A stretch of 61,924 nucleotides of DNA, filler included, from Collodictyon triciliatum (GCA_043381765.1; 3 parts of 3 records of this genome joined end to end with filler, not necessarily neighbours in it); one strand, 5' to 3'. Counted from the first letter of the whole stretch, positions 37,282-59,500 are shown. A program made the numbers and translations. Notes: generated by a model not told the origin, from the sequence alone.

Positions 37282-40060
37282 ATGCATCGGGTAAGCAGCA
37301 ATAAATCTCATCAACTGTATAATTACACAAAGTGTTTTCACTTATTTTCCCATCTTTCATTCATAAATATATGTCCACCTATTATTCTTCCTCTTATTAT
37401 TAATCTTATTATCGTATCCCAGCATGGGCACAAGAAAGTAGTTGTCGTCAAAAGATGGGTTCCTGAGCCCAACCTCGGTTTCGTCCTTGGCGATGAAGAC
37501 ACTGAAGACCATTCTATCGTCCATTACGAAGACCACCAAAAGAACCAGGTTCGTAATGTGATCAACTGAATCCACAAGAATATTACGTTCAGTTCGACTC
37601 GCCTCTCAAGGAGGACGTCCAAATCTTCTTTTATTATTTTATTTTATTTTATTTTGACGAAACTATCAATTCTTACAAATAGAAAACTATTGCTCGAGGT
37701 GGCACATTCCCTGTCGAGACGTCTGATACGCTTGGGGTACCAGATAATACCCATCTTGTCCATCTGCACGAGGCTGGAATGCTACATAACATTCGCCATC
37801 GCTATTTCCAGGACAACATTTATGTATCTGTTTCCTTCTGTATTTTATATTTCTTTTAATTTTTGCTTTCTATGCTTTGTTGCAGTAATTTTCGTATGTT
37901 TAAGTCTCTGGCTCTCTTTTCTTTTGTATTACTATTCAATTGCTATGTAGTGCAAACATTTCATTCAACATACATTCCCTTTTTAAACAACACACGATGT
38001 AACCCAAGATGTACTATGAAACATTTCTTACAAAGTAAACACACGACCGCAGACCTATACTGGATACATTCTTATTGCTGTCAACCCGTACAAAGCACTC
38101 CCGGTTTATGGGGAAGAGTATGTCCGGAAATATTACGGAAAGGTTTACTTATTCTTCATTTTGTCACCCTTCACCACTATATATTACCTTTAAACTATAT
38201 GCTCCTCTTTTTCACATTTTTATAATCAAAATGACGAAGTTCGAATGCATGCGAGAAATGCTCCAATTTTTCTACAAACACTTATTTTACATCCTTCAGC
38301 ATCTTGGTGCGCTGCCTCCGCATGTTTTTGCAATTGCTGATCGTTCTTTTCGTAATTTGAAGACAGGTTCATTTCTAATTACACCATAGTAATCATTAAT
38401 TTTACTTTACCTTACTTCTTTACTTTACATCGCTTTTGCTTTGCATTGCTTTTGCTTTGATGGAGTTGCTAATTATTTATTGTTTTATTTTATTTTATTT
38501 TATTTTATTTTATTTTATTTTATTTTATTTTATTTTATTTTATTTTATTTTATTTTATTTTATTTTATTTTATTTTATTTTGCAACAGATAAATGCAGTC
38601 AGTCCATATTGATCAGGTTTGATATTGCAACCATAATGCCTACATTAATTTATTCAGATTATTTATATAGTAATACATCATAAAAAAGCTTACGAATGGT
38701 CTGAAATCCTTAATTCCGTTAAATAGTGGTGAAAGTGGAGCTGGAAAGACTGAAACCAGCAAGCATGTCATGAAATTCCTCGTCAACGTAACATTTAAAT
38801 GTCATTATAAAGATTACGTTTCTTTATTAAATTTATGGAGAAGTGAAACACATTTTCTTCATGGCTGCATTTAACTATCAAAAGGTGGGAGGAAGCCAAG
38901 GTGCAGGAAGATCTATTGTAGAAGAGCGCATTCTGCAGAGCAATCCTATACTCGAAGCCTTTGGAAACGCCAAGACTCCAAGGAACAACAACTCTTCTCG
39001 CTTTGTGTGTTAACTTCATAATTGAATATTTTATAAATACCATCTTTGTATTACACACTTTCTACTCATTTTAGATAGTAAGCCGCGCAATATTCAAGTG
39101 ACAGTATTTTATTCTTTTGTTTATTTTTGTGACAGGGCAAGTTCATTCAAATCAGATTTAATAAATCGTTCCAAGTGTGCGGAGCAACAATTGTTACTTG
39201 TAAGATATGACTTAAATGACACGTATATCGAATAGAGCTGAAATTTCTCATTAACAAGTTTCATGGACTCCTTCAAAAAAATTATACAAACTCATCGAAA
39301 TCAAACAACTAAACACCCATTCTTCGAAATTTAGATTTGTTAGAGAAGGTAATTATTTTGTTTACTTTGACTAATTTTATTATCTTAACTACGTGTATGT
39401 TTTTTTCTACTAGAAGCAAACTAGATTTGTGCCTCATTCTGATGATAAATTATATTCATAGTCGAGGCTCATATTTCAAAGCCTTGGAAATCGGAACTAC
39501 CATATATTCTATCAGCTTTGTGCAGGAGCCACCGCAGCCGAAAAGGGTTCTCCATATTAATAGTTTATCCACACTTTTGTAGTTTGTTTTAACGAGCTTA
39601 TTCAAATACCTCAATATATTATTATTTATTCTTTTTCTTTTTCTTTTTCTTTTTCTTTTTCTTTTTCTTTTTCTTTTTCTTTTTCTTTTTCTTTTTCTTT
39701 TTCTTTTTCTTTTTCTTTTTCTTTTTCTTTTTTAGCGCAATTGCATCTGAAAGAAGCAAGTGAGTTCCACTACCTGAAACAAGGCGGGGATTCTAAAATC
39801 AATGGAATCTCTGATGCCCATGAATTCTCTGAAGTTCGAGTATGTTTTCACTTTGTTTATAACACGTACTCAACATTTTATTCTATTAACATCGCAATCG
39901 CACAATCTGAATATACAGAAAGCTTTCAAGTCCTTCGGTGTGGATGAAGAGCAACAGATGCAAATATATAGACTATTGGCCGGCCTCTTACATCTTGGAA
40001 ATATCAATTTTGTTGCTGCTTCTTCACGGGATGACTCGTGCAAGATTGAAAACGAAGATA
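37282..40060 (+). CDS. Myosin heavy chain (class VI-like head), 5' part: SH3-like N-terminus, P-loop, switch I
   Basis: [93 protein letters not shown]. Confidence 0.93.
38483..38581. repeat. (TTTTA)n intronic microsatellite
   Basis: Directly visible. Confidence 0.97.
39631..39733. repeat. (CTTTTT)n intronic microsatellite abutting the acceptor
   Basis: Directly visible. Confidence 0.97.
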
Positions 40061-40110
40061 GTACAGTTTTACTTCTTTTTTATTTTGGATCTGGATCTGG
40101 ATTGTTTTTT

Positions 40111-58600: not shown

Positions 58601-59500
58601 CGTATTTTTAGGCCCGCGACTATCAGAAGATTGCCAATGACAACCGACAAAAGTTAGAGGAATATATTCGCACCTCTTCACATGAGCGCAGCGAGGCCAT
58701 TCAATTAATTATGAGCCTGGAATCCATGGTATTCACTCATTTTGTCTTTGCTCTTATTTTTTGATTGGATTTTTTTCGTAAAGCACAATAAGGAATGGTG
58801 GGATTTGTCTATCATAAGGTGAGGTCATTGGAGCAATCGCTCATCAAGAAAGATGAAGAGCTCAACAGCTACATCATGGAGTTAGAGGACGCAGATGACT
58901 ACATCGACGAGCTGAAGATGTCTATTGAAAAGGAGAGGAGAAGGAGCCAGCTGCAAGAAGTATGGATATATATATTATAAATTCGTTTATAACTTGCGAG
59001 ATTTTGCACAAAAGGAAGCATATACTTTTTTTTTTTGACACATTTATGTTAATAGAATACCGAGAAAAGAAATACGATTTTGGGTCATGTATTTTGTGTT
59101 GCGTTGTGTTTTGTTTTGGTTTTTCTTGTATTTATTTCGAATAAATTTTACGCAGATGCAAGCGGATAACACACCCGTGAAACAGATTGATGATGTTTCT
59201 GAGATATTGGTTGCACAACAAATGCTGCGGCTGGAAGAAAAATATGTGACAAAGATTCGCGACCTTTACGTACTGCGACTGACCCTTGAAAAGAAGGTTC
59301 TTGTTGATGAATTCATACATATTGCACCAGGGTCTAATACGTTTTTGTATCAAGACCTTACGATTTGTTCATTGATATAAAAAAAATACTTACAGATGAA
59401 TACTGCTAAATCTGACTTGTGTGAATTCATCGAGAGACTGAATCAGCTTTGCTCTTTTGAGAAACTTGAGTCCCAGACTATTCAAGGAATGGCCCAGGAT
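49626..59500 (+). CDS. Myosin heavy chain, 3' part: switch II, converter, insert-2-like helix, IQ motifs, ER/K SAH and long coiled-coil tail
   Basis: [116 protein letters not shown]; more than 20 heptad-rich exons. Splices in phase to the exon ending at 40060. Confidence 0.92.
54028..54052 (-). mobile_element. Retroposon 3' end, copy 3, inserted at a myosin splice donor
   Basis: T7-CCTTTATTCGATTCAAAG flanked by TCCAGACAGAGGTA and TTCAGACAAAGATA (11 of 14 identical). Confidence 0.55.

Follow-up and report, generated by a model that had tools for sequence, protein, structure and literature searches.

Background

Myosin VI is treated as the only actin motor that moves towards the minus end (10.1101/2023.06.30.547185, PMC3942036). 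Two insertions have been named as defining this class: insert-1, which is near the nucleotide pocket, and insert-2, which follows the converter and repositions the lever (PMC11040104). Animal myosin VI is reported to be a monomer that dimerizes on cargo (PMC3942036, 10.1101/2023.06.30.547185). Here, we describe a myosin gene from Collodictyon triciliatum (GCA_043381765.1). The gene lies at positions 37282-59500, on the + strand, of a 61,924-nucleotide stretch of DNA (parts of three records, not necessarily neighbours, joined with filler), which we will call the window. By the tests reported here, the product of this gene is predicted to work like a myosin VI, but it lies outside the canonical class VI. 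As judged by comparing sequences, what is new is that an insert-2-like element after the converter is common to the whole group of myosins to which the gene belongs, and that a branch of this group with coiled-coil tails exists.

Sebé-Pedrós et al. (2014) reported class VI in holozoans and apusozoans, along with one weakly supported RUN-tailed homolog from a haptophyte, and they inferred that myosin VI was present in the last common ancestor (PMC3942036). Kollmar and Mühlhausen did not accept this, on the grounds that class VI loops and tails are missing from the haptophyte proteins (PMC5583752). The described protist relatives with RUN or PH tails are from Emiliania huxleyi, Thecamonas trahens, and Capsaspora (MYO6) (PMC3942036), and their status as class VI is disputed (PMC5583752). 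Another related case is MyoJ and MyoK from apicomplexans, which Sebé-Pedrós et al. number as class XXIII. PfMyoJ has an insert-2-like insertion (28% identical), and AlphaFold3 models of the converter and neck of PfMyoJ and PfMyoK line up with minus-end motors and were called minus-end-like (PMC13448217). Among human myosins, comparing the converter and neck in this way told plus-end motors apart from minus-end ones (PMC13448217). The evidence for MyoJ and MyoK is of the same kind and level as the evidence for the window gene. (No labelled apicomplexan protein was among the 251 proteins that we fetched, so MyoJ and MyoK are not placed in our trees.) No myosin-VI-like class whose tail is purely coiled coil turned up in our searches of the literature; the class tables in PMC3942036 and PMC5583752 may list its members as orphans or under another class.

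Like the class VI myosins of animals and other holozoans (MYO6, Jaguar/95F, SPE-15), the window gene belongs to the myosin VI supergroup, and it has a homologous helix break and insert-2-like helix, the same modelled direction of the neck, and one or more IQ motifs followed by a stretch that is rich in Glu, Lys, and Arg (ER/K). Unlike them, it lies outside of the canonical clade; it lacks insert-1; it has an extra helix of about 34 residues and a second IQ motif; it matches the MYO6_lever family only below the cut-off; its ortholog has no cargo-binding domain; and its tail is at least 900 residues of coiled coil that is predicted to form a dimer. The RUN- and PH-tailed relatives are in the same supergroup and share the post-converter element, and most of them have the extra helix before the IQ motifs and no insert-1. 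However, they are in other subclades, and their tails are 400-700 residues long and end in RUN or PH domains, while the ortholog's tail consists of coiled coil alone and matches no Pfam domain. Myosins of classes V and XI share the general layout of a long neck that binds several light chains and then a dimerizing coiled coil. But their motors are split from ours in the tree, they have a DIL domain that the ortholog lacks, and their neck, which has six IQ motifs, runs straight into the first of these, while the neck of the window product is predicted to break and turn.

The gene and its product

To refine the splice junctions, we used P0001, which is a complete open reading frame (ORF) of 1975 residues from the EukProt transcriptome of a related organism. 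P0001 was the sole match among 23 candidates in a word-index search with a 69-residue exon, and it is colinear with the window over 37414-59512 (tblastn). The resulting gene has 50 exons and 49 introns, and every intron is GT-AG. The spliced product has 5568 coding bases, or 1856 codons, without a stop. This is a real 50-exon gene, related to myosin VI, with a motor, a neck, and a tail. By its sequence, the gene is intact, of the expressed type, and from an intron-rich eukaryote. The model begins at a predicted ATG (37282, in a first exon of 9 bases) and ends at a donor site (59500). An earlier, sequence-only reading of this DNA had proposed the same limits. Of the ten peptides that it quoted, nine are in the + strand translation where it placed them, and the tenth, which starts with a codon that is split by an intron, is found only in the spliced product. 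The least certain parts of the model are exon 1 and the junctions in the tail at introns 27, 36, and 48.

Residue numbers in the window product equal those of P0001 plus 1. The two proteins are 52% identical in the N-terminal region; for the motor, the neck, the ER/K-rich stretch, and the tail, the identities are 80.5%, 77%, 70%, and 48%, respectively. The parts of the gene are:

37282-37733, + strand: N-terminal region before the motor, residues 1-62 (beta strands in the model of the ortholog)
37734-51919, + strand: motor domain, residues 63-746, exons 3-22 (Pfam Myosin_head; without insert-1)
38727-38787, + strand: exon with the P-loop
49839-50011, + strand: exon with switch II
52057-52083, + strand: last helix of the converter, about residues 747-755 (helix 745-754 in the model of P0001)
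52084-52107, + strand: break in the helix, with many Gly, Asn, Asp, and Pro residues, at about 756-763 (non-helical in both models; the predicted change in the direction of the neck is here)
52108-52409, + strand: insert-2-like helix, residues 764-795, from the end of exon 23 and the start of exon 24 (by homology and models)
52410-52511, + strand: extra helix, basic and hydrophobic, about 34 residues (796-829), lying after the insert-2-like helix and before the first IQ motif
52512-53040, + strand: two IQ motifs, residues 830-847 and 853-870, from the end of exon 24 and exon 25
53071-53483, + strand: ER/K-rich stretch, residues 881-946 (by composition)
53484-59500, + strand: coiled-coil tail, residues 947-1856, exons 27-50 (heptad signal; ended by a run of N)

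When we compared six ORFs from the motor and neck exons to Pfam, four matched Myosin_head (E from 4.8e-06 to 6.7e-23), and the ORFs for the end of the converter and for the post-converter segment had no match.

Placement of the motor domain

P0001 matches Pfam's Myosin_head (PF00063) with 805 bits and over positions 2-679 of the 679 positions in the profile, and a model of P0001 matches solved myosin motors with Z scores of 42-49. When we searched solved structures by sequence, myosin VI took each of the first 18 rows (670-630 bits), followed by myosin Va (622 bits) and Dictyostelium myosin II (567 bits). The top row was a construct of myosin VI with insert-1 deleted. We also searched for relatives with residues 1-880 of P0001, scored 8000 candidates, and kept the best 120. 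Among those 120, the nearest relatives are protist proteins whose motors are 45-53% identical and whose tails have RUN, PH, or no Pfam domains; they include entries named as Capsaspora MYO6 and Thecamonas "defective spermatogenesis protein 15," as well as a protein from Emiliania. Percent identity hardly separates the classes: the motor is 41-44% identical to animal class VI and 40-43% identical to classes V/XI.

Phylogenetic trees do separate them. Our main tree (IQ-TREE, LG+G4) has 65 motor domains, cut before the neck; P0049 and P0025 were dropped as long or partial rows. In this tree, a group of 52 rows that includes every myosin VI with a cargo-binding domain splits from the V/XI and other rows with full support (100/100, ultrafast bootstrap / SH-aLRT). 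Within the group, the canonical clade has 22 rows (100/99), namely 11 with the cargo-binding domain, the Thecamonas pair, and PH-tailed proteins. The window product is excluded from this clade, so it is not a member of class VI in the strict sense. Instead, it forms a separate subclade with P0001 and six other proteins (8 rows, 100/98). A quick tree of 67 rows gave the same grouping.

An exhaustive search of 1.84 billion representative proteins with HMMER found 35,031 proteins at E ≤ 0.001, and none besides P0001 was over 50% identical. For a larger tree, we fetched 251 proteins, of which 237 had a near-complete motor, and added the window product. In this tree of 238 motors (FastTree), the group is a clade of 100 tips (support 90), and the support for the window's subclade is 99.

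Other classes fit poorly. Besides the 100/100 split from V/XI, P0001 has no match to the DIL domain (PF01843), and the modelled neck differs from that of myosin V by 14-19 Å (root-mean-square deviation, or rmsd; in Å throughout). As for the marks of class II, P0001 has no Pfam match to the myosin tail (PF01576) or to the SH3-like domain (PF02736). Overall, the motor of the window gene very probably belongs to the myosin VI supergroup. The sequence-only reading had grouped the motor with class VI rather than with V/XI, which both trees bear out. It had also stated that the protein tracks animal myosin VI closely, and this needs to be narrowed: the supergroup is right, but the motor is scarcely closer to animal class VI than to class V and is outside the canonical clade.

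The post-converter segment

In our alignment, every protein of the group has the last helix of the converter, then a short stretch that is rich in Gly, Ser, Asp, Asn, or Pro, and then a conserved basic aromatic helix. In the V/XI proteins, the converter's helix continues straight into the first IQ motif. Over its 35 residues, the helix from the window shares 28% identity (range 23-31%) and 57% similarity with the 11 class VI proteins that have cargo-binding domains, versus 13% identity (range 3-17%) and 36% similarity with nine V/XI proteins across the same columns. The linker before it has three Pro or Gly residues, versus 0-1 in those nine proteins. The segment aligns without gaps to insert-2 from a solved structure of myosin VI (HMMER), and it does not match Pfam's IQ family. 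These comparisons indicate that the post-converter segment is homologous to the insert-2 of myosin VI.

To see how widespread this element is, we built a profile of the post-converter region from 51 known members, and we left those columns out when making the larger tree. The profile scored at least 50 bits for 97 of the 100 tips within the clade, but for just 4 of the 138 tips outside of it. The three proteins within the clade that scored low look truncated or mis-predicted, and the four outside that scored high are all in the three nearest sister lineages. In these sister lineages, P0163, P0245, P0190, P0250, and P0192 carry insert-2-like segments, with profile scores of 43-61 bits. The insert-2-like element may be older than the 100-tip group.

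Predicted geometry of the neck

We used two AlphaFold2 models to ask where the neck goes after the converter. Model 1 is of residues 1-905 of P0001, with a 63-row alignment (predicted local distance difference test, or pLDDT, of 87.8; predicted template modelling score of 0.81). In this model, the last helix of the converter (745-754) is followed by a non-helical break (755-761) and then by a single helix (762-904). When we compared model 1 to solved structures with Foldseek, ranks 1-21 were all myosin VI. With VIA-align, myosin VI in the pre-powerstroke or autoinhibited state aligns past the converter, up to residues 773-783, with rmsd of 3.0-3.3. For example, 4pfp_A reaches residue 773 (Z = 48.6, rmsd 3.1, 729 residues aligned), 8w41_A reaches 783 (rmsd 3.0), and 4anj_A reaches 781 (rmsd 3.3). 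In contrast, the alignments of the other myosin chains shown all end by residue 761, and those with a solved neck (myosin X with 2 IQ motifs, scallop S1, myosin 1c, and non-muscle and smooth myosin 2) end at 756-758.

Model 2 is of the converter and neck only (P0001 residues 680-835), and its 28-row alignment excluded the rows with a cargo-binding domain, the PH-tailed rows, and the Thecamonas rows. It has the same break (model residues 76-82 are non-helical; pLDDT 88.9). With Foldseek, myosin VI fills ranks 1-26 (24 rows listed), and the chains that bear insert-2 align over 108-129 columns with rmsd of 3.2-4.2. The first other myosin is myosin V at rank 27, with rmsd of 15.7 over 104 columns; for muscle myosins, the rmsd is 14-22. 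VIA-align likewise has myosin VI in each of its top 12 rows (115-155 residues, rmsd 3.4-4.8), including 8w41_A, which aligns over all 155 residues of the model with rmsd of 4.8, and 2bki_A, which aligns over 129 residues with rmsd of 4.1. For plus-end myosins, the alignment either ends at model residues 76-80 or extends into the neck at the cost of an rmsd of 13.9-22.6.

In these models, then, the neck is predicted to be redirected as in myosin VI, rather than forming a straight IQ lever. The earlier claim that the protein has an insert-2 that reverses the lever is thus upheld as to homology and as to the modelled neck. We lean towards movement in the minus-end direction, although not by much.

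Alternatively, the segment could be a degenerate first IQ motif, the break could be a flexible joint, and the neck could be an ordinary lever with about five IQ motifs. The insert-2-like helix opens with an Ile-Gln pair; motifs that resemble IQ can be made out by eye about every 23 residues throughout the neck; and in the alignment, the segment is just as long as the region of the first IQ motif in class V. (Given the Ile-Gln start and this length, insert-2 itself may be a diverged first IQ motif with a break set before it.) The ordinary lever would also suit the near-equal identities of the motor to classes V and VI and the class V-like layout of a long neck and a coiled coil. Furthermore, Kollmar and Mühlhausen reject class VI for the haptophyte relatives that lack class VI loops and tails (PMC5583752), so the class VI status of the protist relatives has been doubted. 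However, an ordinary lever does not explain why the motor splits from V/XI with full support, why the segment is twice as identical to insert-2 as to the V/XI necks, why Pfam's IQ family does not match it, or why P0001 has no DIL domain. Nor does it fit the models, which both break the helix and place the neck on insert-2 with rmsd of 3-5 Å, versus 14-23 Å for plus-end necks. We consider the ordinary lever to be rather unlikely, and we favor the redirected neck.

Insert-1, the extra helix, and the IQ motifs

The sequence-only reading had noted that insert-1 is absent, and we agree. Using P0001 as a stand-in for the window product in an alignment of 63 proteins, the relevant interval (after P0001 residue 279) has 25 residues, versus 46-51 in the proteins with insert-1, which is about 26 residues long. 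Insert-1 is present in 19 of the 63 proteins, all of which have cargo-binding domains. The 44 proteins without it include every protist protein and also four proteins with cargo-binding domains (P0032, P0038, P0051, and P0086). Since it is missing from 4 of the 11 proteins in the tree with cargo-binding domains, insert-1 does not define the wider class, and it looks like a late addition within the class.

The neck has more to it than insert-2 and two IQ motifs, as a basic helix of about 34 residues separates them. This extra helix is found in the window's subclade and in most of the other protist proteins, including the entry named Capsaspora MYO6, but not in class VI proteins with cargo-binding domains nor in PH-tailed proteins of the amoebozoan type. 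It matches no Pfam family and is helical in model 1 (pLDDT 88-94). Possibly, it offers further sites for light chains.

The second IQ motif (52987-53040) has a match to Pfam's IQ family within the window's exon that is below the cut-off (17.8 bits versus 20.3; E = 0.0027). In P0001, the family scores 20.8 bits in two stretches, with the best at 828-847. Overlapping the second IQ motif, at 52942-53086, is a weak match to MYO6_lever (PF21521), the three-helix bundle that extends the lever after a single IQ motif in class VI; this match is also below the cut-off (15.2 bits versus 27.3; E = 0.025). No match to MYO6_lever is listed for P0001, and model 1 shows one continuous helix there.

The tail

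Within residues 881-946, Glu, Lys, and Arg account for 54-79% of each 28-residue block, and there are few hydrophobic residues. The start of this stretch is helical in model 1, with pLDDT of 51-64. Going by its composition, this stretch is a candidate single alpha-helix. So the earlier account of two IQ motifs and then an ER/K stretch is consistent with both the Pfam matches in P0001 and the composition.

The rest of the product (residues 947-1856) has just 0-2 Pro or Gly per 28 residues and a clear heptad signal. The strongest hydrophobic period is 3.5 residues (power 7.6), and none of 300 shuffles reached this power. This accords with the roughly 900 residues of coiled coil that had been noticed earlier. 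We folded two copies of P0001 residues 1140-1480 three times and obtained scores of 0.42, 0.42, and 0.02, while the best of three controls scored 0.00. In the dimer model, the pLDDT of the partner is at least 63, and contacts between the same residues, at a spacing of 3-4 over 1145-1382, correspond to a parallel pair that is in register. Of 30 solved homodimers, 21 attained the mark for this score, and of 23 single chains, none did; among proteins from eukaryotes without an older solved relative, just 1 of 7 reached it. Based on these models, the tail probably forms a dimer.

We rejected a recognizable cargo domain at the C-terminus of P0001, although a novel one is possible. Pfam finds no domain in the tail of P0001, and the cargo-binding domain (PF16521) has no match in the full-length protein at E up to 1. 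An atlas search with residues 1760-1975 returned only coiled-coil clusters (MYO5B fragments, Rab5-bind, and CEP128), with scores of 0.89-0.92 and between 101 and 125 features shared out of 256. When these last 216 residues were compared to 120 myosins (blastp), no match had an E below 3. The earlier remark that no cargo-binding domain is evident therefore holds for the ortholog. In the window itself, the gene enters a run of N (59611-60119), so its own last 120 residues or so, which would correspond to the final residues of P0001, are unreadable.

In all eight members of the subclade, the tail opens with an ER/K stretch, is poor in Pro and Gly, and is 420-1380 residues long. As the sequence-only reading had proposed, the architecture differs from that of animal myosin VI, in having a coiled-coil tail and in lacking insert-1, but it is not unique to this genome, as seven further database proteins have it. 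We found no alignment between the tails of these eight proteins, and when the tail of P0001 was compared to 120 proteins, it found only itself (blastp).

A 28-residue charge period marks the rods of myosin II. We did not find this period in the tail (power 0.1, reached by 91% of shuffles; p = 0.91), and we set aside a myosin-II-like rod. More broadly, the protein could be a contractile or anchoring myosin that forms filaments or associates with a ring, with a tail that assembles many molecules as in myosin II or as has been proposed for MyoJ at the basal ring, whatever its direction. A tail of at least 900 residues would suit such a protein, as would the lack of a Pfam cargo-binding domain in the ortholog and the generic nature of the coiled-coil clusters that its last 216 residues resemble. 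Also, a report on Toxoplasma assigns MyoJ to class VI and places it in a basal structure that resembles a contractile ring (PMC9613666). On the other side are the missing charge period, the lack of a Pfam Myosin_tail match in P0001, and the tails of the subclade, which cannot be aligned with one another and so fit a spacer or dimerizer better than a precisely packed rod. We think that assembly into filaments or rings is unlikely. Transport or long-range anchoring by a dimer seems more likely than myosin-II-like filaments.

Exons, the long intron, and neighboring genes

The window's DNA is eukaryotic, with numerous short introns, simple repeats, and 12 runs of N. Words from the window were found in public sequencing runs with shares of 0.15 and 0.13 (two runs that we guess are RNA) and 0.05 (a freshwater metatranscriptome), which is not evidence about expression or habitat. 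The exons are:

Exons 1-5, + strand: 37282-37290; 37423-37548; 37683-37823; 38053-38142; 38300-38366
Exons 6-10, + strand: 38589-38616; 38727-38787; 38885-39004; 39136-39199; 39335-39348
Exons 11-15, + strand: 39462-39546; 39736-39839; 39919-40060; 49626-49744; 49839-50011
Exons 16-20, + strand: 50151-50208; 50311-50397; 50523-50717; 50823-50949; 51073-51158
Exons 21-25, + strand: 51414-51619; 51784-51919; 52057-52189; 52396-52533; 52940-53087
Exons 26-30, + strand: 53163-53325; 53466-53576; 53950-54024; 54164-54238; 54352-54426
Exons 31-35, + strand: 54516-54590; 54720-54794; 54928-55002; 55197-55271; 55401-55538
Exons 36-40, + strand: 55685-55789; 55898-56035; 56145-56282; 56418-56555; 56690-56827
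Exons 41-45, + strand: 56922-57026; 57173-57310; 57469-57606; 57735-57872; 57967-58101
Exons 46-50, + strand: 58301-58459; 58612-58728; 58819-58959; 59156-59296; 59396-59500
Intron 13, + strand: 40061-49625, 9565 bases, between exons 13 and 14 (other introns are about 75-410 bases)

Exon 10 (39335-39348) is a micro-exon of 14 bases. The exons of the tail (exons 27-50, 53466-59500) are more regular: all 24 are in phase 0, with lengths that are multiples of three. Seven consecutive exons (28-34) have exactly 75 bases, and eight others (35, 37-40, and 42-44) have exactly 138 bases. We rejected duplication as the source of the 75-base exons, as they are no more alike than shuffled sequences are (mean 18.8 vs. 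18.8). The 138-base exons are slightly more alike than shuffles (32.0 vs. 26.5 ± 5.2, with a maximum of 60 vs. 47), which is at most a faint trace of duplication.

Intron 13 contains a block (40313-49371) that is bordered by runs of N at 40234-40312 and 49372-49471 and that carries two other genes. A gene on the + strand encodes a guanylate/adenylate cyclase domain (Guanylate_cyc, E = 1.1e-27, 42972-43358) and also has a weak V4R match (41714-41923) and coiled-coil exons. A gene on the - strand encodes MIF4G (E = 2.2e-14, 46120-46533). The block may be a nested pair of genes, or it may be a mis-scaffolded contig within a scaffold gap. Either way, the myosin's reading frame is untouched by the block, as residues 351 and 352 of P0001 adjoin across the intron.

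Because the block carries two unrelated genes between runs of N, and because the C-terminus is missing, we considered whether this is not one functional gene at all, but rather a pseudogene, a mis-scaffolded pair of myosin fragments, or a gene that was broken by DNA inserted at 40.1-49.6 kb. We consider this to be very improbable. No stop interrupts the 1856 codons, and each of the 49 introns is GT-AG; the junction of the two halves falls precisely at residues 351/352 of P0001, which is derived from transcripts and contains no cyclase sequence; and the 80.5% identity of the motors indicates purifying selection. If the block were mis-scaffolded, that would remove the long intron, not the gene.

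Elsewhere in the window, an exon at 11226-11786 (+ strand) encodes the C-terminal domain of SBDS (E = 1.2e-15), and a gene at 29059-29931 (+ strand) encodes a leucine-rich-repeat protein (LRR_8, E = 1.2e-19). Beyond the run of N that ends the myosin gene, the sequence changes in character: by our reading, 60300-60900 has long open frames that are rich in Pro, Ser, and Thr, and it is not similar to the C-terminus of P0001. What lies here is probably either the next gene or untranslated sequence.

Discussion

Our favored explanation, which we hold with moderate confidence, is that the gene's product is a two-headed member of the myosin VI supergroup. As in myosin VI, the helix break and the insert-2-like helix would together fold the neck back across the converter, and this would direct the working stroke towards the minus (pointed) end of actin. 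The neck would be a continuous helix of about 120 residues, comprising the insert-2-like site (the first site for a light chain), the extra basic segment, and the two IQ motifs, with room, we infer, for about four or five calmodulin-like light chains. The ER/K-rich stretch, of about 65 residues, would prolong the neck as a helix, and the coiled coil, of at least 900 residues, would pair two heavy chains, parallel and in register. The product would be a constitutive dimer with two long reversed levers, and it might be suited to processive transport towards the minus end or to load-bearing anchoring over long distances; here, both the processivity and the cargo are conjecture. The sequence-only reading had suggested a dimeric, possibly minus-end-directed myosin. 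Our models predict the dimer and the reversed neck, while that the dimer is constitutive, as well as the direction of movement, are still predictions.

Several points count against this explanation. The window product falls outside of the canonical clade, and its motor is nearly as similar to class V/XI as to animal class VI. Our trees have no labelled class I or class II proteins, and the root is assumed to lie outside of the group. Both AlphaFold2 models are of the ortholog, not of the window product, and they were made without calmodulin by a network that was trained on structures of myosin VI, so they may echo memory. In model 1, the confidence in the break itself is moderate (pLDDT of 64 for the block). 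One of the three runs for the dimer scored 0.02, and given the result for eukaryotes without older solved relatives, a coiled coil that passes may do so because of its likeness to solved ones. Finally, the C-terminus of the window product is hidden by N. The Ile-Gln start, the spacing, and the length of the post-converter segment, and the doubts of Kollmar and Mühlhausen, which we discussed along with the ordinary lever, belong on the same side.

A bolder proposal, which we offer tentatively and which could well be wrong, is that the reverse gear is the hallmark of an old and widespread supergroup of eukaryotic myosins that walk backwards and have varied tails (RUN, PH, cargo-binding domain, or coiled coil). 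The window gene would then represent an undescribed branch that is constitutively two-headed and minus-end-directed, with four or five light chains on a reversed lever and an ER/K helix.

The post-converter element maps onto one large clade with proteins from many protist data sets, so the dispute over the extent of class VI could be tested with a single motility assay. The protein, whose neck would be reversed and whose long lever comes with a dimerizer of its own, would be a natural counterpart of engineered myosin VI constructs, and it would be useful for asking how the length of the lever and dimerization set the step size and the direction. If the protein turned out to be plus-end directed, then an insert-2-like sequence and the geometry of a model would not predict direction, which would be equally instructive. 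If the bolder proposal is true, then an undescribed branch of the supergroup bears on the long debate about the dimerization and the large steps of myosin VI, and the reverse gear is not a holozoan invention.

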